A DNA stretch of 64,000 nucleotides from Escherichia coli (GTDB taxonomy: Bacteria > Pseudomonadota > Gammaproteobacteria > Enterobacterales > Enterobacteriaceae). The position numbers and the translations under genes are program-made. Positions 2,982-63,153 of this stretch are shown one piece after another. Positions within the stretch are counted from its first letter, which is position 1, and every line of letters begins with the position of its first letter. The stretch lies in NCBI RefSeq assembly GCF_041248615.1, contig NZ_CP158426.1; one strand, 5' to 3'. Under the pieces are notes generated by a model. The model worked only from the letters and a program-made list of their open reading frames with translations. It was not told the DNA's origin and did not search any database.

Positions 2982-3257
2982 GTGGCTTCTGTTTCTATCA
3001 GCTGTCCCTCCTGTTCAGCTACTGACGGGGTGGTGCGTAACGGCAAAAGCACCGCCGGACATCAGCGCTATCTCTGCTCTCACTGCCGTAAAACATGGCA
3101 ACTGCAGTTCACTTACACCGCTTCTCAACCCGGTACGCACCAGAAAATCATTGATATGGCCATGAATGGCGTTGGATGCCGGGCAACCGCCCGCATTATG
3201 GGCGTTGGCCTCAACACGATTTTCCGCCATTTAAAAAACTCAGGCCGCAGTCGGTAA
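2982..3257 (+). CDS. insA: IS1 InsA (transposition repressor / N-terminal part of the transposase)
   Basis: 91-aa [42 protein letters not shown]... characteristic of IS1 InsA. Confidence 0.95.
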
Positions 3258-3679
3258 CCTCGCGCATACAGCCGGGCAGTGACGTCATCGTCTGCGCGGA
3301 AATGGACGAACAGTGGGGATACGTCGGGGCTAAATCGCGCCAGCGCTGGCTGTTTTACGCGTATGACAGGCTCCGGAAGACGGTTGTTGCGCACGTATTC
3401 GGTGAACGCACTATGGCGACGCTGGGGCGTCTTATGAGCCTGCTGTCACCCTTTGACGTGGTGATATGGATGACGGATGGCTGGCCGCTGTATGAATCCC
3501 GCCTGAAGGGAAAGCTGCACGTAATCAGCAAGCGATATACGCAGCGAATTGAGCGGCATAACCTGAATCTGAGGCAGCACCTGGCACGGCTGGGACGGAA
3601 GTCGCTGTCGTTCTCAAAATCGGTGGAGCTGCATGACAAAGTCATCGGGCATTATCTGAACATAAAACACTATCAATAA
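3176..3679 (+). CDS. insB: IS1 InsB (transposase catalytic part, made as InsAB' fusion by -1 frameshift)
   Basis: 167-aa ORF overlapping insA in the -1 frame; characteristic IS1 InsB sequence. Confidence 0.93.
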
Positions 3680-3694
3680 GTTGGAGTCATTACC

Positions 3695-3703
3695 TGTGCA
3701 CGG
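3695..3703. repeat. Right copy of 9-bp target-site duplication TGTGCACGG flanking IS1
   Basis: Exact repeat of 2918..2926 immediately after the IS1 right end. Confidence 0.9.
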
Positions 3704-3721
3704 TATACAAATAAGTAACAA

Positions 3722-3763
3722 AAGAGAATATATTCCGGCACCTTCGCTACATAAAAGGTGCCG
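3722..3763 (-). terminator. Putative intrinsic terminator downstream of cysB
   Basis: Inverted repeat CGGCACCTT...AAGGTGCCG followed by a T-rich stretch on the minus strand, just past the cysB stop. Confidence 0.45.
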
Positions 3764-3779
3764 AAAATAACGCAAGAAA

Positions 3780-4778
<999 letters not shown>

Positions 4779-4963: not shown

Positions 4964-7561
4964 TTATTTTTTCCCTTCAACCCATTTGCCATCAACATAA
5001 AATGCTGACCAGCCAGTCGCCTTTCCGTCTTTTTCCGAAGAGACATATTGCTGTTTGGTTTTACGGCTAAAGCGAACCATGGTCTTATTACCTTCCGGAT
5101 CCTGCTGTGGCGCATCGGCCAGATAACGCAGTTTTTCCGGCAGACGGTCGCGGAAGCGATAAAGCTCTTCCACCAATGGCGCACGTGTTTCACGCGATTT
5201 CGGGAAGGTATTGGCCGCCAGGAACACACCGGCAGCACCGTCACGCAGCACGAAATAGGCATCTGATTTTTCGCACGGCAGCTCAGGTAATGGCACCGGA
5301 TCTTCTTTCGGTGGTGCCACTTCGCCGTTACGTAAAATCTTACGTGTGTTTTTACACTCTTCGTTGGTGCAGGCCATGTATTTACCGAAACGCCCCATTT
5401 TCAGGTGCATTTCAGAGCCACATTTTTCACACTCAACGATCGGGCCGTCATAACCTTTAATGCGGAATTCGCCCTCTTCGATCTCGTAACCGTCGCAGGT
5501 TGGGTTATTACCACAGACATGCAACTTACGTTTCGGATCGATGAGATAGCTGTCCATCGCCGTGCCGCATTTCGGGCAACGACGTTTTGCGCGCAGCGCG
5601 TTGGTTTCAGCGTCTTCACCTTCCAGCACGTTCAGCACTTCGTTTTCCGGCACCAGGTTAATGGTGGTTTTGCAACGCTCTTTTGGCGGCAGCGCATAAC
5701 CAGAACAGCCAAGGAATACCCCGGTGCTCGCTGTGCGAATCCCCATTTTGCGACCACAAGTCGGGCAGTCAATGCTGGTCAGAACCATCTGGTTCGGGCG
5801 CATACCCCCCTCTTCCGGATCTTTTTCAGCTTTATCTAACTGCTGGGTGAAATCCGAGAAGAAGTGATCCAGTACAGCTTTCCACTCTGCTTCGTGATTT
5901 GCCACCTGGTCGAGGCTGTTTTCCATCTGCGCGGTGAAGTCGTAGTTCATTAACTCGCGGAAATTCTCTTCCAGGCGATCGGTGACGATTTCGCCCATTT
6001 TTTCCGCATAGAAACGACGATTTTCTACTCGCACATAGCCACGATCCTGAATGGTCGAAATGATCGATGCATAGGTAGACGGACGACCGATACCGCGTTT
6101 TTCCAGCTCTTTAACCAGCGATGCTTCACTAAAACGGGCTGGCGGCTTGGTAAAGTGCTGGGCTGGTGTCAGTTCAACGAGCGTCAGAGCATCGCCTTTA
6201 TCGACTGCCGGTAAGATACGATCTTCATCGCCTTTACGCAGTGCAGGCATCACTTTTGTCCAGCCATCAAAGCGCAAAATACGACCGCGTGCTTTCAGGC
6301 GGAAATCGCCCGCACCAACGGTCAGCGTCGTGGAGTCATATTTCGCTGGGGTCATCTGGCAGGCAACGAACTGACGCCAGATTAACTGGTACAGTTTCTG
6401 CGCATCTGCTTCCATATCCTTCAGCGATTCCGCCATCACATTGACGTCAGAAGGACGAATCGCTTCGTGCGCTTCCTGTGAGTTTTCTTTGCTGGCGTAC
6501 TGATTCGGACTTTCCGGCAGATATTTCTTACCAAAATTATCGCTGATATAACCGCGAACCATATTTACCGCGTCCTGACTCAGGTTAGTGGAGTCGGTAC
6601 GCATGTAAGTGATATAGCCTGCTTCATACAAACGCTGCGCCATCATCATGGTTTTTTTCACGCCAAAACCAAGACGGGTGCTGGCAGCTTGTTGCAGCGT
6701 AGAGGTAATAAAAGGAGCGCCAGGTTTACTGGTTGTCGGTTTGTCTTCACGTTCCAGCACGCTGTAGCGCGCTTTTTCCAGCAGACTTACCGCAGCCTGA
6801 GTTTGTTCTTTGTTGACCGGGCGGAACGGTTTGTCGTTCTGATGAGTCACCTGCAACGCCAACGCATCACCAGATGGCGTGGTTGTGCTGGCATCGACTT
6901 CCCAGAACTCTTCCGGTACGAACGCTTTAATTTCACGCTCACGCTCGACCACCAGTCGAACCGCCACCGACTGAACACGACCTGCAGACAGACCACGAGC
7001 GATCTTTTTCCACAGCAGCGGCGAAACCATATACCCCACCACGCGGTCCATAAAGCGACGCGCCTGCTGGGCATTAACACGATCAATATTCAGCTCACCT
7101 GGTTTGTTAAATGCCTGGCGGATCGCGTTTTTAGTAATTTCGTTAAACACCACTCGGCTATAGCGCGCATCATCACCACCAATCACTTCCCGCAGGTGCC
7201 ATGCAATGGCTTCCCCTTCGCGGTCAAGGTCGGTTGCGAGATAGATGTGGTCGGCTTTTTCAGCCAGTTGTTTCAGTTCAGAGACGACCTTCTCTTTACC
7301 AGGCAACACTTCATAGTGCGCCTCCCAATTGTGCCACGGGTCAACCCCCATACGGTTGACGAGAGCGCCACGTTCATCCTTTTTAGGCTTTTTAGCCGTC
7401 TTGGTGGAGGTAGAGTCGGCACTCTTTTTGGCAGCTGAGCCACTGGTCGGCAAATCGCGGATGTGACCGACGCTGGATTTCACCACGTAGTCACTACCCA
7501 GATACTTGTTGATCGTTTTGGCTTTTGCCGGGGACTCAACGATGACAAGAGCTTTACCCAT
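4964..7561 (-). CDS. topA: DNA topoisomerase I
   Basis: 865-aa product starting [22 protein letters not shown]... with C-terminal zinc-ribbon repeats; track ORF extends 14 codons upstream to 7603, but the conserved N-terminus starts at the Met at 7561. Confidence 0.96.
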
Positions 7562-53314: not shown

Positions 53315-54849
53315 GGGTGCGGCTCCGTTTTGCTGGTTACGTCGATGGCATCGATACGGCGGCTGTTGAACAGATTGAATTTGGTATCTGAACCGTGGCA
53401 GCCATCACCAAAGGTAAAGCCGCAGCCATTTTTCTCCGGGAAGGCTTCCCGCGCCAGTTCACGATGACTGCTCGGCACCACAAAGCGATCTTCGTAGTTA
53501 GCAATCGCCAGATAACGGTACATCTCCTGTGCCTGGGCTTCGGTCAGACCGACCTCTTCCAGCGCACGGGTATCGACTTTACCGTCAACGGTTTCAGCAC
53601 GTTTGTAATGACGCATCGCCAGCATACGTTTCAGCGCGCGCAGTACCGGTTTGGTATCACCGGCGGTCAGCAGATTCGCCAGATACTGTACCGGAATACG
53701 CAGGCTTTCGACGTCTGGCAGAATGCCGTTGCTGCCCAGCTCACCCGCGTCTGCTGCAGACTGAATCGGCGACAGAGGCGGCACGTACCAGACCATCGGC
53801 AGTGTGCGATATTCTGGATGCAGCGGCAGCGCCAGTTTCCATTCCATCGCCATTTTATAAACCGGCGACTGCTGTGCGGCTTCAATAACGCTCAGCGGAA
53901 TACCGTCTTTAATTGCCTGCTCGATGACTTTCGGATCGTTCGGATCGAGGAACACCTCCAGCTGACGCTGGTAGAGATCTTTCTCGTTCTCGGTGCTGGC
54001 TGCACGTTCAATGGCGTCCGCATCGTACAGCAGCACGCCGAGATAACGGATACGACCGACACAGGTTTCAGAGCACACCGTCGGCTGACCCGCTTCAATA
54101 CGCGGATAGCAGAAGATGCACTTCTCAGACTTACCGCTCTTCCAGTTGAAGTAGATTTTTTTGTATGGGCATCCGGTGATGCACATACGCCAGCCACGGC
54201 ATTTATCCTGGTCGATCAGGACGATGCCATCTTCTTCACGCTTGTAAATCGCACCGCTCGGGCAGGTCGCCACACATGCCGGGTTCAGGCAGTGTTCGCA
54301 CAGGCGCGGCAAATACATCATGAAGGTGTTTTCGAACTGGCTATACATCGCCTTCTGGATGTTGTCGAAGTTCTTGTCTTTCGCCAGTTTGTCAAACTCA
54401 CCGCCCAGGTCATCTTCCCAGTTCGGCCCTTTTTCGATTTTCGCCATCCGTTCCCCGGTAATCAGCGAACGCGGACGGGCAATCGGCTGCGATTTGCTGC
54501 CTTCCGGCGCGGTATGCAGGTTCTGATAGTCAAAATCGAACGGCTCGTAATAATCGTCGATCCCCGGCAGATGCGGGTTAGCGAAGATTTTACCCAGCAG
54601 CATGGCACGGTTACCCATGCGCGGCTGCAGTTTGCCGTTGATTTTACGAATCCAGCCGCCTTTGTATTTTTCCTGGTTTTCCCAGTCAGTCGGGAAGCCC
54701 TGGCCCGGCTTGGTTTCCACGTTGTTGAACCACGCGTATTCCACGCCTTCGCGGCTGGTCCAGACGTTTTTACAGGTAACTGAACAGGTGTGGCAGCCGA
54801 TGCACTTATCGAGATTCAGCACCATGCCGACTTGTGAACGAATTTTCAT
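53311..54849 (-). CDS. narH: Respiratory nitrate reductase 1 beta subunit (Fe-S)
   Basis: 512-aa ORF with multiple Cys clusters (CIGCHTC, CEHCLNPACVATCP). Confidence 0.96.
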   Translation of the reverse strand: MKIRSQVGMVLNLDKCIGCHTCSVTCKNVWTSREGVEYAWFNNVETKPGQGFPTDWENQEKYKGGWIRKINGKLQPRMGNRAMLLGKIFANPHLPGIDDYYEPFDFDYQNLHTAPEGSKSQPIARPRSLITGERMAKIEKGPNWEDDLGGEFDKLAKDKNFDNIQKAMYSQFENTFMMYLPRLCEHCLNPACVATCPSGAIYKREEDGIVLIDQDKCRGWRMCITGCPYKKIYFNWKSGKSEKCIFCYPRIEAGQPTVCSETCVGRIRYLGVLLYDADAIERAASTENEKDLYQRQLEVFLDPNDPKVIEQAIKDGIPLSVIEAAQQSPVYKMAMEWKLALPLHPEYRTLPMVWYVPPLSPIQSAADAGELGSNGILPDVESLRIPVQYLANLLTAGDTKPVLRALKRMLAMRHYKRAETVDGKVDTRALEEVGLTEAQAQEMYRYLAIANYEDRFVVPSSHRELAREAFPEKNGCGFTFGDGCHGSDTKFNLFNSRRIDAIDVTSKTEPHP

Positions 54850-57800
54850 TTTACGCTCTCCTGTACCTGGTCATTGCCTTCGCCATCTAACCAGTCAATG
54901 TTCTTCATCTTACGCACCACAACAAACTCATCGCGGTTAGAACCTACGGTGCCGTAGTAGTTAAAGCCGTATGCCAGATGGGCATAGCCGCCAATCATAT
55001 GCGTCGGTTTCGGCGTGATACGGGTGACCGAGTTATGGATACCACCACGCTGTTGGGTAATTTCCGAACCCGGCAGGTTAACGATACGTTCCTGCGCGTG
55101 GTACATCATGGTCATCCCTGCCGGAACACGCTGGCTGACAACCGCACGGGCAGTCAGTGCACCGTTGCTGTTGAAGACTTCAATCCAGTCGTTATCGGCG
55201 ATACCCAGCTCTTTGGCATCGGCTTCACTCAACCAGACCACCGGACCACCGCGACCTAAAGTCAGCATCAGCAGGTTGTCGCTGTAGGTGGAGTGGATAC
55301 CCCACTTCTGGTGCGGCGTCAGGAAGTTGAGCGCTTTTTCCGGGTTACCGTTAGATTTCTGGCCCATCACCTCTTTTACCGAACGGGTGTCGATTGGCGG
55401 GCGATAAACCAGCAGGCTTTCACCGAAATCACGCATCCACTGGTGATCCTGATACAGCTGCTGACGGCCAGAGAGCGTACGCCATGGGATCAGCTCGTGA
55501 ACGTTGGTGTAACCGGCGTTGTAAGAAACGTGTTCATCTTCAAGGCCAGACCAGGTCGGGCTGGAGATGATTTTGCGCGGCTGTGCCTGAATATCGCGGA
55601 AGCGAATCTTCTCGTCTTCTTTATTCAGCGCCAGATGCGTATGGTCACGACCGGTAAACTCGCTCAGGGCAGCCCAGGCTTTCACGGCTACCTGACCGTT
55701 GGTTTCCGGTGCCAGCGTCAGGATCATCTCTGCCGCATCAATTGCGGTGTTCAGCATGGGCTGGCCTTTTGCCGGACCTTCCGCTTTGGTGTAGTTGAGC
55801 TTACGCAGCAGATCCATCTCGCTCTGGGTGTTCCAGGCAATCCCTTTACCGCCGTTACCGATTTTCTCCATCAGCGGGCCGATAGAGGTAAAGCGTTCGT
55901 AAGTTGCCGGATAATCGCGCTCTACGACCATAATGTGCGGTGCAGTTTTACCTGGGATCAGGTCGCATTCGCCTTTTTTCCAGTCTTTCACATCCAGCGG
56001 TTGCGCCAGTTCAGCGGCAGAGTCGTGCTGGATAGGCAGCGTGACGATGTCAGTTTCTTTACCCAGATGACCAACGCACACTTCGGAGAATTTCTTCGCG
56101 ATGGCTTTGTAGATTTCCCAGTCGCTTTTCGCTTCCCAGGCCGGATCGACCGCCGCAGACAGCGGGTGAATAAACGGATGCATATCCGAAGTATTCATGT
56201 CGTCTTTTTCGTACCAGGTCGCCGTCGGCAAAATGATGTCGGAATAGAGACAGGTGCTCGACAGACGGAAGTCCAGCGTCACCACCAGATCCAGCTTGCC
56301 TTCCAGACCGTTGTCCTGCCAGTCCACTTCTTCCGGCTTCACGCCGCCCTGCTGCCCCAGGTCTTTGCCCTGGATACCGTGCTCCGTCCCCAGCAGGTAC
56401 TTGAGCATAAACTCATGACCTTTACCGGAAGAACCGAGCAGGTTAGAACGCCAGATGAACAGGTTACGCGGGTGGTTTTTACCGTTTTCTGGTTGTTCTG
56501 CCGCAAAACGGATAGAACCCTCTTTCAGGGATTTCACGGTGTAATCCACCGGATTCATGCCCGCTTTTTTCGCTTCGCCAGCGATAGTTAGCGGGTTAGT
56601 GCCTAACTGCGGCGCAGACGGCAGCCAGCCCATACGTTCTGCACGGACGTTAAAGTCGATCAGATGTCCGGTATAACGGGATTTATCCGCCATCGGCGAC
56701 AACAACTCTTCTGCGGTCACGGTTTCATAACGCCACTGGCTGGAGTGGTTATAGAAATAAGAGGTGCTGTTCATGTGACGCGCCGGACGCTGCCAGTCAA
56801 GAGCAAACGCCAGCGGCTGCCAGCCGGTTTGCGGACGCAGTTTTTCCTGACCTACATAGTGCGCCCAGCCACCACCGCTCTGACCTACACAGCCGCAGAA
56901 AATCAGCATGTTGATCAGACCACGATAGTTCATATCGAGGTGATACCAGTGGTTCAGCCCCGCACCGACGATAATCATCGAACGACCGTGGGTTTTATCA
57001 GCGTTATCGGCAAATTCACGGGCGATGCGAATAATCTGGCTGCGAGAAACGCCGGTAATCTGCTCGGCCCACGCAGGGGTGTAAGCTTTCACATCGTCGT
57101 AGCTGGTTGCGCAGTTAACGTCGTTCAGGCCACGTTCCAGACCATAGTTTGCCAGCGTCAGATCGTAAACGGTGGTCACCAGAGCGGTGCAGCCATCAGC
57201 CAGTTGCAGGCGTTTCACCGGCAGCTTGTGCAGCAGAATGTTTTCCAGTTCCACTTTGTTGAAGTGTTCAGTGCCGTCGCCACCAAAGTACGGGAAGCCC
57301 ACCTCAGCGATCTCATCCTGGCTACCCAGCAGGCTCAGTTGCAGCTCGGTTTCTTCGCCAGTTTTGCCGTCGCGCTGTTCAAGATTCCATTTGCCCTTCT
57401 CGCCCCAGCGGAAGCCAATAGAACCGTTCGGCGCAACCATTTCGCCATTGGTATTAAAGGCGACAGTTTTCCATTCCGGATTGTTTTCCTGGCCCAGCGC
57501 ATCCACCAGATCAGCAGCGCGCAGCATACGACCTGCGGCGTAGTAACCGTCGCGTTCTTCCAGCATCACCAGCATCGGCATGTCGGTGTAGCGACGCACA
57601 TAGTCGGTGAAATACTGGCTTGGGTTGTCGAGGTGGAATTCACGCAGCATTACGTGGCCCATCGCCAGCGCCATTGCCGCATCGGTGCCCTGTTTCGGTG
57701 CCAGCCACAGATCGCACAGTTTGGCGATTTCAGCGTAGTCTGGCGTGACGGCAACAGTTTTGGTGCCTTTGTAACGCACTTCAGTAAAGAAGTGAGCATC

Positions 57801-58589
57801 CGGGGTACGCGTCTGCGGCACGTTTGAACCCCAGGCGATGATGTAGCTGGAGTTGTACCAGTCAGCAGATTCCGGTACGTCAGTCTGCTCGCCCCAGGTT
57901 TGCGGAGACGCAGGAGGCAGGTCGCAGTACCAGTCGTAGAAGCTTAAGCAAGTACCGCCAAGCAGCGAGAGATAACGCGCGCCGGAAGCGTAAGAAACCA
58001 TCGACATTGCCGGAATTGGCGAGAAGCCAGCGACGCGGTCCGGGCCGTAGTTTTTGATGGTGTAAACGTTAGAGGCGGCGATCAGTTCATTCACTTCCTG
58101 CCAGGAAGAACGAACAAAACCACCGCGTCCACGCGCCTGCTTAAAGCTTTTCGCTTTATCGGCGTCTTCAATGATAGAAGCCCATGCCTCAACTGGATCG
58201 CTATGCAGCGCTTTCGCTTCACGCCACATTTTCATCAGGCGTTTGCGCATCATCGGGTATTTCAGGCGGTTGGCGCTGTAAAGATACCAGGAGTAGCTGG
58301 CACCGCGCGGGCAGCCGCGAGGTTCATGGTTTGGCAGGTCCGGGCGAGTACGCGGATAGTCAGTCTGCTGGGTTTCCCAGGTCACCAGACCGTTTTTGAC
58401 GTAGATTTTCCAGCTGCAGGAGCCGGTGCAGTTTACCCCGTGGGTAGAGCGGACGATTTTGTCATGCTGCCAACGCTGGCGATATCCATCCTCCCAGTCA
58501 CGGTTGGTATTGAGAAGCTGGCCATGCCCATCGGCAAAGGTTTCACCCTTCTGTTTGAAGTAGCGAAACCGGTCCAGGAATTTACTCAT
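54846..58589 (-). CDS. narG: Respiratory nitrate reductase 1 alpha subunit (molybdopterin)
   Basis: 1247-aa ORF MSKFLDRFRYFKQKGETFADGHGQ... Confidence 0.97.
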   Translation of the reverse strand: MSKFLDRFRYFKQKGETFADGHGQLLNTNRDWEDGYRQRWQHDKIVRSTHGVNCTGSCSWKIYVKNGLVTWETQQTDYPRTRPDLPNHEPRGCPRGASYSWYLYSANRLKYPMMRKRLMKMWREAKALHSDPVEAWASIIEDADKAKSFKQARGRGGFVRSSWQEVNELIAASNVYTIKNYGPDRVAGFSPIPAMSMVSYASGARYLSLLGGTCLSFYDWYCDLPPASPQTWGEQTDVPESADWYNSSYIIAWGSNVPQTRTPDAHFFTEVRYKGTKTVAVTPDYAEIAKLCDLWLAPKQGTDAAMALAMGHVMLREFHLDNPSQYFTDYVRRYTDMPMLVMLEERDGYYAAGRMLRAADLVDALGQENNPEWKTVAFNTNGEMVAPNGSIGFRWGEKGKWNLEQRDGKTGEETELQLSLLGSQDEIAEVGFPYFGGDGTEHFNKVELENILLHKLPVKRLQLADGCTALVTTVYDLTLANYGLERGLNDVNCATSYDDVKAYTPAWAEQITGVSRSQIIRIAREFADNADKTHGRSMIIVGAGLNHWYHLDMNYRGLINMLIFCGCVGQSGGGWAHYVGQEKLRPQTGWQPLAFALDWQRPARHMNSTSYFYNHSSQWRYETVTAEELLSPMADKSRYTGHLIDFNVRAERMGWLPSAPQLGTNPLTIAGEAKKAGMNPVDYTVKSLKEGSIRFAAEQPENGKNHPRNLFIWRSNLLGSSGKGHEFMLKYLLGTEHGIQGKDLGQQGGVKPEEVDWQDNGLEGKLDLVVTLDFRLSSTCLYSDIILPTATWYEKDDMNTSDMHPFIHPLSAAVDPAWEAKSDWEIYKAIAKKFSEVCVGHLGKETDIVTLPIQHDSAAELAQPLDVKDWKKGECDLIPGKTAPHIMVVERDYPATYERFTSIGPLMEKIGNGGKGIAWNTQSEMDLLRKLNYTKAEGPAKGQPMLNTAIDAAEMILTLAPETNGQVAVKAWAALSEFTGRDHTHLALNKEDEKIRFRDIQAQPRKIISSPTWSGLEDEHVSYNAGYTNVHELIPWRTLSGRQQLYQDHQWMRDFGESLLVYRPPIDTRSVKEVMGQKSNGNPEKALNFLTPHQKWGIHSTYSDNLLMLTLGRGGPVVWLSEADAKELGIADNDWIEVFNSNGALTARAVVSQRVPAGMTMMYHAQERIVNLPGSEITQQRGGIHNSVTRITPKPTHMIGGYAHLAYGFNYYGTVGSNRDEFVVVRKMKNIDWLDGEGNDQVQESVK

Positions 58590-58680
58590 CGGTTTTCTCC
58601 TGTGGGAGCCTGTCGGCCCTCTGATAAATCGACATTGCTAATGTTTAAGGGCAAGGTAACGCTCTGAAACAGCGTGAGAA

Positions 58681-58694
58681 TTGATAACGATCAA
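58681..58694. promoter_or_regulatory. FNR box (TTGAT-AACG-ATCAA) in the narG promoter
   Basis: Perfect consensus FNR palindrome about 100 bp upstream of the narG ATG; a NarL heptamer-like TACCCCT lies further upstream near 58733..58740. Confidence 0.75.
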
Positions 58695-58983
58695 GAGTGA
58701 TGGGGATGAAAAATAAAGTAAATTCCTAAGATACCCCTTTAGGATAATTAACAGCCACCACATAACAGACTGTAAATTAAGACGTTTTATACCTGTAGTT
58801 ATTTAAACTATTAAGATTTTTATGCAGATGGGTATTAAGGAGTATTCCCCATGGGTAACATATTAATGGCTCTTAATGAAATCCGGCGAAATAAGCCACT
58901 CACACATAAGTATGTTGTAACTAAACGACAGATAAAAAAAAGCGCGACATCATGCCGCGCAAAGGATAATCAAATATTAAGAT

Positions 58984-60375
58984 TTATTTTTTAGAATGCC
59001 GACCATATACCGCCCAGGTAATCACCACGCAGGCGATATAGAAAATCAAAAATACCTTCATTGCGCCGACTGGCGAACCCGTTAATGCCAGCGAGCTACC
59101 AAACGCTTTCGGGATAAAGAAGCCACCAATAGCGCCAATCGCAGAGATGAAACCCAGCGCCGCCGCCGTGTCGGTTGCCGCTTCACGCATCGCTCGTTCG
59201 TCAGAACCCCCTTCTGCTTTCACGCGATCCATTGTCAGTTTACGGAAGATCACGGAAATCATCTGGAAAGTGGAACCACTACCCAGCCCAGCTGTCAGGA
59301 ACAGCGCCAGGAAGACTGCGAAGAACGCCATGAAGCTTCCGCCCTGCCCGTCAGTCGGTAAGGTCAGGAACAGCAGGCCGCTGAAAATCGCCATCAGGAT
59401 AAAGTTCACCAGTGTGACACGAGTTCCGCCCAGACGGTCAGATAATGCACCACCTGCAGAACGCGCCAGCGCACCAATAAACGGCCCGAAGAAAGCGTAT
59501 TGCAGAATCTGAACATCCGGGAACTGCGTTTTTGACAGCATCGCAAAGCCCGCGGAGAAGCCGATGAAGGAGCCGAAGGTTGCCAGATACAGCAGGCTCA
59601 TAATCCACAGATGACCCCGTTTGAGTACCGGCAACTGCTCCTTGATGGAGGCTTTCGAGGTAGCAAGATCGTTCATGCCAAACCACGCCGCAATGGTGAA
59701 GATGGCAAGGAACGGCACCCATACCCAGGACGCATTCGCCAGATACAGCTCAGTCCCATCCGGCTGTTTGACACCCTGGCTACCAAATACTGCGAAAATC
59801 GACAGTGATACCACCAGCGGAGCAACCAACTGCATGACGCTGACGCCCATGTTGCCCAGACCACCATTCAGGCCCAGCGCGCCACCCTGCTTCTGTTTCG
59901 GAAAGAAGAAGCTGATGTTTGCCATACTCGATGCGAAGTTCGCGCCAGCAAAGCCGCACAGCAGAGAGATGATGATGAAGACGCTATAAGGCGTGGAGGT
60001 ATCCTGCACGGCAAAACCCAGCCAGACGCAAGGAATAATCAGAATACCAGTGCTGAACGCCGTCCAGCGACGACCACCGAAGATAGGAACCATAAAGGAG
60101 TATGGAACACGTAATAACGCGCCAGAAACCGAAGGCAGCGCAGTCAACATAAATAGCTGATCGGTCGTAAAATTAAAACCGACTTTCGGTAAGTTCACCG
60201 CAACAGCGCTGAACAACATCCATACGCAAAACGCCAGCAGCAGACAGGGAACGGAAATCCACAGGTTGCGGCTGGCAATACGTTGACCGCGTTGTTGCCA
60301 GAACGCAGGATCTTCCGGTCGCCAATCTGTAATGACAGCTCCAGTAGCCCTTTCGGGGGCGGATGAGTGACTCAT
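58984..60375 (-). CDS. narK: Nitrate/nitrite transporter NarK (MFS)
   Basis: 463-aa product starting MSHSSAPERATGAVITDWRPEDPAFW...; track ORF begins two codons upstream at an alternative start. Confidence 0.95.
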   Translation of the reverse strand: MSHSSAPERATGAVITDWRPEDPAFWQQRGQRIASRNLWISVPCLLLAFCVWMLFSAVAVNLPKVGFNFTTDQLFMLTALPSVSGALLRVPYSFMVPIFGGRRWTAFSTGILIIPCVWLGFAVQDTSTPYSVFIIISLLCGFAGANFASSMANISFFFPKQKQGGALGLNGGLGNMGVSVMQLVAPLVVSLSIFAVFGSQGVKQPDGTELYLANASWVWVPFLAIFTIAAWFGMNDLATSKASIKEQLPVLKRGHLWIMSLLYLATFGSFIGFSAGFAMLSKTQFPDVQILQYAFFGPFIGALARSAGGALSDRLGGTRVTLVNFILMAIFSGLLFLTLPTDGQGGSFMAFFAVFLALFLTAGLGSGSTFQMISVIFRKLTMDRVKAEGGSDERAMREAATDTAAALGFISAIGAIGGFFIPKAFGSSLALTGSPVGAMKVFLIFYIACVVITWAVYGRHSKK

Positions 60376-60434
60376 AGACACCTCTGATACTCGTTTCGAT
60401 GTCTGCCACCTTAGTGTCTATAGCTAAAGGCAAT

Positions 60435-60448
60435 TTGATGTAAATCAA
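60435..60448. promoter_or_regulatory. FNR box (TTGAT-GTAA-ATCAA) in the narK promoter
   Basis: Perfect consensus FNR palindrome 60-75 bp upstream of the narK ATG. Confidence 0.7.
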
Positions 60449-60713
60449 ACGATAAGATAACTTTATCTATCATTGATATTTATCATTACCCATAGTGAGT
60501 ACAGTGATTTCATAAAAATTATGAGATTTTTCACGGTGCTGTAAAATCCCTACCCTTACCGATGTAAAGCGACTAACCACGCGGCAAATAAGGAGTAACT
60601 CTTTCCGGGTATGGGTATACTTCATCCAATAGCCGAGAATACTGCCATTCCAGAATGTATCGTCACATTCATTAAGGTTATTGCTCATTTAAAGCCTGAA
60701 GGAAGAGGTTTAC

Positions 60714-62510
60714 ATGCTTAAACGTTGTCTCTCTCCGCTCACCCTGGTTAATCAGGTTGCGCTTATTGTGTTGCTTTCTACTGCTATTGGACTGGCAGGG
60801 ATGGCAGTTTCTGGCTGGCTAGTGCAAGGCGTTCAGGGCAGCGCCCATGCGATCAACAAAGCGGGATCGCTGCGCATGCAAAGTTACCGTCTGTTGGCAG
60901 CAGTGCCATTAAGCGAGAAAGACAAGCCCTTAATTAAAGAGATGGAACAAACAGCATTTAGCGCCGAATTAACCCGAGCAGCAGAACGAGACGGACAACT
61001 GGCGCAATTACAGGGTTTACAAGATTACTGGCGTAATGAACTGATCCCTACGCTGATGCGTGCACAAAACCGCGAAACGGTGTCAGCGGATGTCAGCCAG
61101 TTTGTTGCCGGGCTTGATCAGCTGGTATCTGGTTTTGACCGCACCACGGAAATGCGCATTGAGACAGTGGTACTGGTCCATCGGGTAATGGCGGTATTTA
61201 TGGCACTTTTACTGGTGTTCACTATTATCTGGTTGCGGGCGCGATTGCTACAACCGTGGCGGCAACTGCTGGCAATGGCGAGTGCCGTCAGCCATCGCGA
61301 TTTTACCCAACGCGCAAACATCAGCGGGCGCAACGAAATGGCGATGCTTGGAACTGCATTGAACAATATGTCTGCAGAACTGGCCGAAAGTTATGCCGTA
61401 CTTGAGCAGCGGGTTCAGGAGAAAACTGCCGGGCTGGAGCATAAAAATCAGATCCTCTCTTTTTTATGGCAGGCTAACCGCCGTTTGCATTCCCGCGCCC
61501 CGCTGTGTGAACGCCTGTCACCTGTACTCAACGGCTTACAGAATTTAACCCTGCTACGTGATATCGAACTGCGGGTGTATGACACTGATGATGAAGAGAA
61601 TCATCAGGAGTTTACCTGCCAGCCAGATATGACTTGTGATGATAAAGGCTGCCAGCTCTGCCCGCGCGGCGTATTACCCGTTGGCGATCGCGGCACAACC
61701 CTGAAGTGGCGGCTGGCTGACTCTCATACGCAGTACGGTATTTTGCTGGCGACCCTGCCGCAGGGGCGTCATCTTAGCCATGATCAACAACAACTGGTGG
61801 ATACCCTGGTTGAACAACTCACCGCCACGCTGGCGTTGGATCGCCATCAGGAACGTCAGCAACAGTTGATCGTGATGGAAGAGCGTGCCACCATTGCGCG
61901 CGAACTGCATGATTCTATTGCCCAATCTCTCTCTTGCATGAAGATGCAGGTGAGTTGTTTACAGATGCAGGGCGATGCGCTGCCAGAAAGCAGCCGCGAA
62001 CTGTTAAGTCAGATCCGTAACGAACTGAATGCATCCTGGGCGCAGTTGCGTGAATTGCTCACCACATTCCGCTTGCAGCTCACCGAGCCTGGATTACGTC
62101 CGGCGCTGGAAGCGAGTTGCGAAGAGTACAGCGCCAAATTTGGCTTCCCGGTGAAGCTGGATTATCAATTGCCGCCTCGTCTGGTGCCCTCGCATCAGGC
62201 AATCCACTTGTTGCAAATTGCCCGTGAGGCATTAAGTAACGCCCTCAAACATTCGCAAGCGAGTGAGGTCGTGGTGACGGTGGCGCAAAACGATAATCAG
62301 GTCAAACTGACCGTCCAGGATAACGGCTGCGGCGTGCCTGAAAATGCCATCCGCAGCAATCACTACGGCATGATAATAATGCGCGACCGTGCGCAAAGTT
62401 TACGAGGCGATTGCCGCGTCCGCCGTCGTGAATCAGGTGGCACCGAAGTGGTGGTCACCTTTATTCCCGAAAAAACTTTCACAGACGTCCAAGGAGATAC
62501 CCATGAGTAA
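60714..62510 (+). CDS. narX: Nitrate/nitrite sensor histidine kinase NarX
   Basis: 598-aa ORF with two TM helices flanking a periplasmic sensor, HAMP, and HisKA_3 / ATPase domains (ELHDSIAQ). Confidence 0.96.
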
Positions 62511-63153
62511 TCAGGAACCGGCTACTATCCTGCTGATCGACGATCACCCGATGCTGCGAACTGGCGTAAAACAGCTTATCAGTATGGCACCAGATATCAC
62601 CGTGGTTGGCGAAGCGAGTAATGGCGAACAGGGTATTGAACTGGCGGAATCTCTTGATCCCGATTTGATCCTGTTAGATCTCAATATGCCCGGCATGAAC
62701 GGTCTGGAAACGCTGGATAAACTGCGCGAAAAGTCCCTCTCCGGGCGCATTGTGGTATTCAGCGTTTCTAACCATGAAGAAGATGTGGTCACCGCACTGA
62801 AACGCGGCGCGGATGGCTATCTGTTAAAAGATATGGAACCGGAAGATCTGCTGAAAGCGTTACATCAGGCAGCTGCTGGCGAAATGGTATTAAGCGAAGC
62901 ATTAACGCCTGTTCTGGCCGCCAGCTTGCGTGCTAACCGTGCCACTACTGAGCGCGATGTTAACCAGTTAACCCCACGCGAGCGCGATATTCTCAAGCTG
63001 ATTGCCCAGGGTTTGCCGAACAAGATGATTGCCCGCCGCCTGGACATCACCGAAAGCACAGTAAAAGTGCACGTCAAACACATGCTGAAGAAAATGAAGC
63101 TCAAGTCTCGCGTGGAAGCAGCGGTATGGGTGCATCAGGAGCGCATTTTCTGA
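62503..63153 (+). CDS. narL: Nitrate/nitrite response regulator NarL
   Basis: 216-aa product starting [22 protein letters not shown]... with LuxR-type HTH C-terminus; GGAG Shine-Dalgarno before the ATG at 62503; overlaps the narX stop. Confidence 0.96.

Follow-up and report, generated by a model that had tools for sequence, protein, structure and literature searches.

The narK-narG intergenic region of an Escherichia coli strain read as three known units: the narGHJI promoter, the narK/NarS end and TerD

The 394-bp interval that separates narK from narG (58590..58983) in the 64,000-nucleotide stretch of Escherichia coli DNA analysed here (NZ_CP158426.1, hereafter the window) very probably consists of three known units: the promoter of narGHJI, the end of narK and its small RNA NarS with their terminator, and the replication terminus site TerD. 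The first-pass annotation had taken the whole interval for narG control DNA. This holds for the larger part of it, but about one third (58905..58983) is made up of the NarS/3′ untranslated region (3′UTR), the terminator and TerD, none of which had been mentioned, and the first 50 bases past the stop codon of narK do not belong to the control DNA of narG. The narG part of this reading is textbook knowledge. Only side points are mildly new, namely a conserved unit formed by the terminator and TerD, an ancestral palindrome at the −89 NarL site, and an invariant narG leader with a hairpin. Identity with K-12, the positions of the elements, their statistics, their conservation between species and the integrity of the genes come from the present analysis; protein binding, the loop mechanism, the processing of NarS and the arrest of replication forks are as published for K-12 and Salmonella.

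As narG and narK are both encoded on the minus strand, the interval has to be read on that strand. The order of the genes and their products agree with the narXL-narK-narGHJI locus, and all seven nar genes (narX, narL, narK and narGHJI) are full-length, free of internal stops and 99.4-100% identical to the K-12 proteins. Of 5426 complete E. coli genomes, 5415 contain the interval, with identities of 90-100%; its best match is in the uropathogenic E. coli strain 118UI, where the flanks are annotated as narX-narL, narK and narGHJI. Between the terminator of narK and the ATG of narG, the window and K-12 MG1655 differ by a single base, at −31, and by a few substitutions in the window between the terminator and −215. 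Numbered from the published transcription start, the elements occupy the same positions as in the K-12 narGHJI promoter (narGp). All regulatory sites are unchanged in six diverse E. coli, in which variation clusters between the sites. For comparison beyond the species, we searched with a degenerate pattern built on the N-terminus of NarG, which retrieved 120 species-level loci from Enterobacteriaceae and relatives. The coordinates of all features are collected in Table 1.

Table 1. Features of the narK-narG region in the window, listed from narG towards narX (promoter positions are relative to the narG transcription start).
Feature	Coordinates	Strand	Remarks
narG	54846..58589	-	
narG start codon ATG	58587..58589	-	tblastn with K-12 NarG: 1247 aa, 99.4% identity, no internal stops
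narG 5′ untranslated leader, 57 nt (as predicted from +1)	58590..58646	-	nearly invariant in ~110 species
narG Shine-Dalgarno AGGAG	58597..58601	-	AGGAGA invariant in 76 aligned species sequences
Leader hairpin GGGCC-GACA-GGCTC	58606..58619	-	GAGCC/GGCTC in most genera
narG transcription start (+1), inferred	58646	-	FNR centre 58687.5 taken as −41.5
−10 hexamer TACCTT (−12..−7)	58653..58658	-	29 bp from the FNR-site centre
Single promoter difference from K-12, T for C at −31	58677	-	
FNR box TTGATCGTTATCAA (narG strand)	58681..58694	.	−48..−35, centre −41.5
NarL heptamer TACCCCT, centre −89	58732..58738	+	inverted relative to narG
Degenerate partner TTATCCT, centre −98	58741..58747	-	5/7 match to TACYYMT; 2 bp from the −89 heptamer
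Putative IHF core TTACAGTCTGTTA, centre −123	58763..58775	-	A-tract ATAAAA at 58790..58785
NarL heptamer TACCCAT, centre −185	58828..58834	-	TACC kept across genera
NarL heptamer TACTCCT, centre −195	58838..58844	-	−195 region footprinted by NarL-P (PMC4549865)
NarL heptamer TACCCAT, centre −208	58851..58857	-	invariant in 6 diverse E. coli
TerD (Tus-binding replication terminus site) CATAAGTATGTTGTAACTAAACG	58905..58927	+	K-12 counterpart, core identity
narK intrinsic terminator	58934..58960	-	stem-loop 58960..58942, T-run 58941..58934; terminator scan
Predicted 63-nt NarS-S sRNA (narK 3′ end and 3′UTR)	58934..58996	-	
NarS seed ATTTGATTATCCTTT	58961..58975	-	15-nt perfect complement of K-12 nirC −13..+2
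narK	58984..60375	-	
narX and narL	60714..63153		divergent from narK/narG

The narK 3′ end and TerD

The hairpin of the narK terminator appears in both the minimum free energy (MFE) and the centroid folds of the region. In K-12, the non-coding RNA narS (b4813) is annotated at the 3′ end of narK, and the Salmonella NarS has been shown to be processed by RNase E and to bind Hfq (PMC7038943). The window shares with Salmonella and K-12 the location at the narK 3′ end, the Rho-independent terminator on which the RNA ends and a perfect seed for nirC. The seed matches the NarS-nirC pairing described in PMC7038943, and its duplex with the target, the ribosome-binding site of K-12 nirC, has a computed energy of −22.7 kcal/mol; the strain's own nirC lies outside the window. 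The length and 5′ end given for NarS in Table 1 were set by analogy with NarS-S of Salmonella, in which RNase E cuts at UCA/UUC (PMC7038943). On this analogy, the compact, Salmonella-like 3′UTR of the window predicts a NarS of 63 nt, running from 58996 to 58934. The narK 3′UTR would yield an Hfq-dependent NarS whose seed could pair with the nirC ribosome-binding site. K-12 differs from the window here, as an ERIC element of ~126 bp follows directly on its narK stop codon (5350..5475 of the K-12 locus, L001) and lengthens its NarS. This insertion contains the ERIC1R and ERIC2 primer sequences. The window lacks it after narK, and no copy of the K-12 ERIC-type insertion was found anywhere else in the window. 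Since 2457 of the 5426 complete E. coli genomes contain a copy of the insertion at ≥99% identity, both alleles are common.

When 58000..61000 was scanned against Rfam with a permissive threshold, there were only two chance matches, far under the gathering scores; one of these was the narK terminator aligned with the terminator part of the L20 leader, and Rfam holds no family for NarS. Small open reading frames of 22-47 aa also occur in the gap; they run across the promoter, Ter or the terminator, are not preceded by a Shine-Dalgarno sequence and were set aside as mechanical.

Six bp past the terminator, the conservation profile contains an almost invariant 16-mer, TTAGTTACAACATACT (58924..58909). 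Compared by eye with binding motifs, it did not fit ArcA, ModE, NsrR, RstA, GntR, NorR or a sigma-S −10 element. A full-text literature search with the 16-mer as a string led to the Tus-Ter literature, and the 16-mer proved to be part of TerD. The K-12 copy, CATTAGTATGTTGTAACTAAATG, lies at 1279527..1279549, inside the TerD interval 1279446..1279676 (PMC10287960), and the core of TerD is that of TerB, AATAAGTATGTTGTAACTAAAGT (PMC4499146). Ter sites are 23 bp long, with a G at position 6 (G6) and a conserved core at positions 8-18 (PMC8347550); the window site has G6, and its positions 8-18 read ATGTTGTAACT, as in both TerD of K-12 and TerB. It is found at the same locus as K-12 TerD, with the same G6 and the same core over positions 8-19, and differs from it by two substitutions at outer positions (4 T>A and 22 T>C). 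This is within the variation of terD among E. coli strains, for which one to two SNPs per 23 bp have been reported (PMC10331603).

The terD site is described as intergenic, located at 1.28 Mb and able to block forks (PMC10331603), and ChIP-seq has shown Tus at six E. coli Ter sites, TerD among them (PMC8707476). It blocks counter-clockwise forks (PMC5638614), and the non-permissive face of a Ter site is the side of G6 (PMC4499146). The orientation of the window site relative to narG and to GC skew is the same as that of K-12 TerD. The plus strand of the window has a GC skew of −0.035; as this value is negative, the normal fork runs towards lower coordinates and meets the permissive, position-23 end first. 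Read in this way, the window TerD would serve as a Tus-binding fork barrier that passes the normal fork from oriC and, as published for TerD, blocks forks arriving from the terminus, which would meet the G6 side.

The site is not restricted to E. coli. Of 112 species loci, 83 have a Ter in the narK-narG gap in which G6 and positions 8-19 never change. Positions 1-4, 7 and 20-23 vary among these 83 loci, a pattern already known for Ter sites (PMC8347550). The gap is without a Ter in other species, among them Hafnia, Enterobacillus, Buttiauxella and some Klebsiella/Raoultella. Ter begins 5-7 bp after the T-run of the narK terminator in 74 of 82 species. We therefore tentatively suggest that TerD may be positionally orthologous across most Enterobacteriaceae and may form a conserved unit with the narK/NarS terminator. 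Two reasons for such a unit can be imagined: the terminator could stop narK transcription from entering Tus-Ter by its permissive face and dislodging Tus, or Tus could insulate the region upstream of narG. Neither the juxtaposition of terminator and Ter nor the synteny of TerD between genera appears in two Ter surveys (PMC8707476, PMC8347550), although they may be described elsewhere; according to one of the two surveys, it is unclear how the ter sites of Salmonella and Klebsiella relate to the E. coli ones.

The proximity of TerD to the narG promoter raises the question of whether the whole 394 bp could be one narG control region, to which Tus-bound TerD and the narK terminator contribute as a roadblock, an insulator or an architectural partner of NarL. 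TerD lies only ~55 bp upstream of the −208 heptamer, terminator and Ter are closely coupled, as just described, and 64 of 82 motif occurrences have Ter 71-74 bp away from the −195 heptamer (71 bp in 6, 72 in 20, 73 in 33 and 74 in 5), although the sequence between the two (58858..58904) is not conserved. The steady spacing could reflect a low number of indels. However, in Pluralibacter, Ter is only 6 bp away from the −195 heptamer, and the position of Ter follows the narK terminator more tightly than the narG promoter. Moreover, a fragment from −223 to +70, which contains neither TerD nor the terminator, serves as a 'full-length' nitrate-regulated reporter promoter (PMC9314961), and neither narG nor narK occurs once in the two Ter surveys cited above. 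A single control region is thus improbable, and we retain the reading as three units, the third of which is the narGHJI promoter.

The narGHJI promoter

The FNR site of narGHJI in K-12 has been mapped to −41.5, and a ChIP-seq peak (PMC3688515) lies ≤15 bp from the corresponding K-12 position. Because of this published position, we placed the narG transcription start of the window at 58646. An independent anchor is provided by the published fragment narG223, which spans −223 to +70 (PMC9314961 supplement): its primers map to 58869 and 58577 in the window, which is exactly −223/+70 if +1 is 58646. The spacing of 29 bp between the centre of the FNR site and the −10 hexamer is the optimal one for class II promoters (PMC9314961), and GTTACCTT, at the −10 region, is kept across genera. 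The inverted repeat, its centre near −41.5 and its distance of ~29 bp from the −10 are those of a class II FNR promoter. A scan with the sigma-70 consensus missed the narG promoter, as expected for one that depends on an activator, and is hence uninformative.

The first-pass annotation had located the FNR site correctly, in both sequence and coordinates. On the plus strand the 14-mer reads TTGATAACGATCAA, and its reverse complement is the narG-strand box listed in Table 1. Its description as a perfect palindrome is right for the two 5-bp arms but not for the central AACG, which is not self-complementary. A perfect TTGAT-N4-ATCAA occurs twice in the window, against 0.07 expected, and none of 100 shuffled sequences reached two. 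Of 118 informative species loci, 114 also have a perfect box at a distance of 93-127 bp upstream of the ATG of narG, with invariant arms around a 4-bp spacer that varies (CGTT, CGCC, CATC, CCCC and others). Judged from this alignment, the fixed arms and variable spacer are a signature of selection on protein contacts. FNR- and anoxia-dependent transcription is known for K-12 narG (PMC3688515), and from the identity of sequence with K-12 we infer the same dependence for the promoter in the window.

The NarL sites are best judged as a group. TACYYMT is found 44 times in the whole window against 33 expected, and a single match is thus statistically meaningless. Five matches are concentrated in the 394 bp, where 0.27 would be expected at the rate of the window (P ~1e-5) and 0.57 from local base composition (P ~3e-4). 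One of the five, at 58906..58912, falls within TerD and is coincidental; the other four (−89, −185, −195 and −208) fall within 171 bp, against 0.12 expected. The three distal heptamers have the orientation of narG, and that at −89 is inverted. NarL-P footprints have been obtained at the −89 (high-affinity) and −195 regions of K-12 narG (PMC4549865), and through identity with K-12 the heptamers of the window coincide with the footprinted regions. By that identity, TACCCCT is the −89 site, already known to bind NarL with high affinity. This heptamer had been recognized in the first-pass annotation and is real, but it had been placed one base off, at 58733..58740, a stretch of eight bases that reads ACCCCTTT. 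Its distance from the FNR box, estimated there at about 45 bp, agrees with the 47.5 bp that separate the two centres. The upstream cluster at −185, −195 and −208, which the literature holds to be essential, had been overlooked.

E. coli narG has been reported to be without 7-2-7 NarL sites (PMC4549865). In agreement with this, the −89 heptamer of the window does not form a 7-2-7 inverted pair, as its partner TTATCCT matches only five of seven positions, and such a pair is not needed for the activation of narG by NarL. The −89 site is kept across genera as GG.GGTA, but an exact TACYYMT at the −89 spacing is found in only 19 of 110 species, most genera reading TACCACC. In most genera the site is a 7-2-7-like palindrome, as in Klebsiella pneumoniae (ACCACCTTGGTGGTA) and Phytobacter (TCCCCTTTAGGGGTA); in E. 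coli, the consensus right half has been kept and the left half, TTATCCT, is degenerate and largely lost. TACYYMT is found exactly 153.5 bp from the FNR centre (−195) in 82 of 110 species, and the block TAC.CCTTAATACC (−198..−183) is >90% conserved amid diverged flanks. The −208 heptamer is poorly conserved across genera and is not conserved outside Escherichia.

The interval is AT-rich, with a GC content of 0.20-0.40 over 58675..58950, and the first-pass annotation had proposed that IHF might bind near the −89 heptamer. The AT-richness and the involvement of IHF both stand, an IHF site at narG being reported at −125 in a passage of PMC4682653 that cites Schroder et al. (1993), but the putative core lies ~30 bp upstream of that heptamer, in the AT-richest stretch (GC 0.20-0.36). 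It could be placed solely by alignment between species. A scan with the IHF consensus did not discriminate, giving 71 matches in the window against 65 expected; with at most one mismatch allowed, there was no match between −89 and −185, and with two mismatches, several AT-rich matches of no value appeared, none of them at the published position. The E. coli sequence TTACAGTCTGTTA has three mismatches to the IHF core WATCAANNNNTTR and retains the conserved CA and TTA as well as the ATAAAA tract. It aligns with perfect WATCAANNNNTTR cores in Cedecea (TATCAATGAATTA), Siccibacter, Phytobacter and Buttiauxella. The aligned core at −123 is flanked by the upstream activator site on one side and the promoter on the other.

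Across ~110 species of Enterobacteriaceae, the FNR half-sites, the −195/−185 pair, the −89 site and an IHF core are found at the same places, and the peaks of conservation fall exactly on the FNR, NarL and IHF sites, amid diverged flanks. The comparison with the mapped narG elements of K-12 agrees at each point, with FNR at −41.5, the NarL −89 and −195 regions and IHF at about −125 all at their published positions, and an arrangement suited to control by nitrate and anaerobiosis, as the first-pass annotation had proposed, is borne out by near-identity to the K-12 promoter. The promoter (58646..58860) would be of class II, dependent on FNR, with a weak −10 and no −35 element. Under anoxia, FNR would recruit RNA polymerase; in the presence of nitrate, NarX would phosphorylate NarL, and NarL-P would occupy the high-affinity −89 site and the lower-affinity sites at −185, −195 and −208. 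A bend introduced by IHF at about −123/−125 would bring the upstream NarL complex to the promoter, and full induction would require FNR, IHF and both NarL regions.

Allelic variation, the narG leader and the narK promoter

Could the promoter nevertheless differ in function from that of K-12? Its sole difference, T for C at −31, might alter promoter strength or dependence on FNR, in which case the two would not be equivalent. T is indeed the minority allele in E. coli, as the exact 61-mer from −61 to −1 is found in 392 records and 5023 records match it with one or two mismatches. However, −31 belongs neither to the FNR half-sites nor to the −10 hexamer, and both bases are found there in other Enterobacteriaceae with otherwise conserved promoters: T in E. 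albertii, Citrobacter werkmanii and Enterobacter cloacae, C in Salmonella and Kluyvera. This mixture suggests that the position is neutral, and we consider an effect of the allele on narG improbable. As for the idea that the motifs are chance matches in AT-rich intergenic DNA with no regulatory role in this strain, the slight excess of TACYYMT in the window and the stray match in TerD are the most that can be said for it, and it can be dismissed given the rarity of perfect FNR boxes, the near-identity to an experimentally dissected K-12 promoter and the persistence of the sites over ~110 species while their flanks diverged. The narG promoter of the window is best read as that of K-12.

In the search of E. 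coli genomes, thirteen of the narG promoter matches fell on records that carry a plasmid label. In E. coli FDAARGOS_943 (NZ_CP065615.1), an IS1A is inserted in the narG promoter (3249..4169 of its locus, L003). The alignment with the window is interrupted at the equivalent of 58734, within the −89 NarL heptamer, and the insertion should cut narG off from the NarL and IHF sites upstream of it.

The narG leader is also strongly conserved. Within it, the block AGCAATGTCGATTT (58639..58626) stands in an almost invariant context. In the alignment of the leader hairpin, 93.9% of the cells are paired and one-sided changes give wobble pairs; changes on both sides of two pairs, in Hafnia and Enterobacillus, lend the hairpin weak covariation support. 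The MFE of the leader is not unusual (z = −1.2). The 3′ arm of the hairpin, CUCC, is able to pair alternatively with GGAG of the Shine-Dalgarno sequence. Our literature search found no paper on the enterobacterial narG leader.

The second perfect FNR box of the window lies upstream of narK (60435..60448). If this box is set at −41.5, the heptamers at 60487 (plus strand), 60591 (minus) and 60611 (minus) would be located at about −90, −194 and −214. On this numbering, the narK promoter (60435..60617) would mirror the layout of narG, including the inverted heptamer at about −90, although its sequence differs.

Meaning for the strain and for the family

A first-pass claim of wider scope was that the promoter arrangement shows the regulon to be intact. 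For narX, narL, narK and narGHJI this is correct, but it follows from the genes, as a promoter cannot show it, and fnr, ihfA/B and narQ/P lie outside the window. What the strain carries is the standard anaerobic, nitrate-inducible narG promoter together with an intact narXL-narK-narGHJI locus, as do nearly all E. coli. The gap between narK and narG stacks three functions, and annotation or engineering of the region should respect all of them, for instance when a narG expression cassette is built or narK is deleted. Finally, a synteny anchor for TerD that is shared between genera could help to sort orthologous ter sites among enterobacteria.
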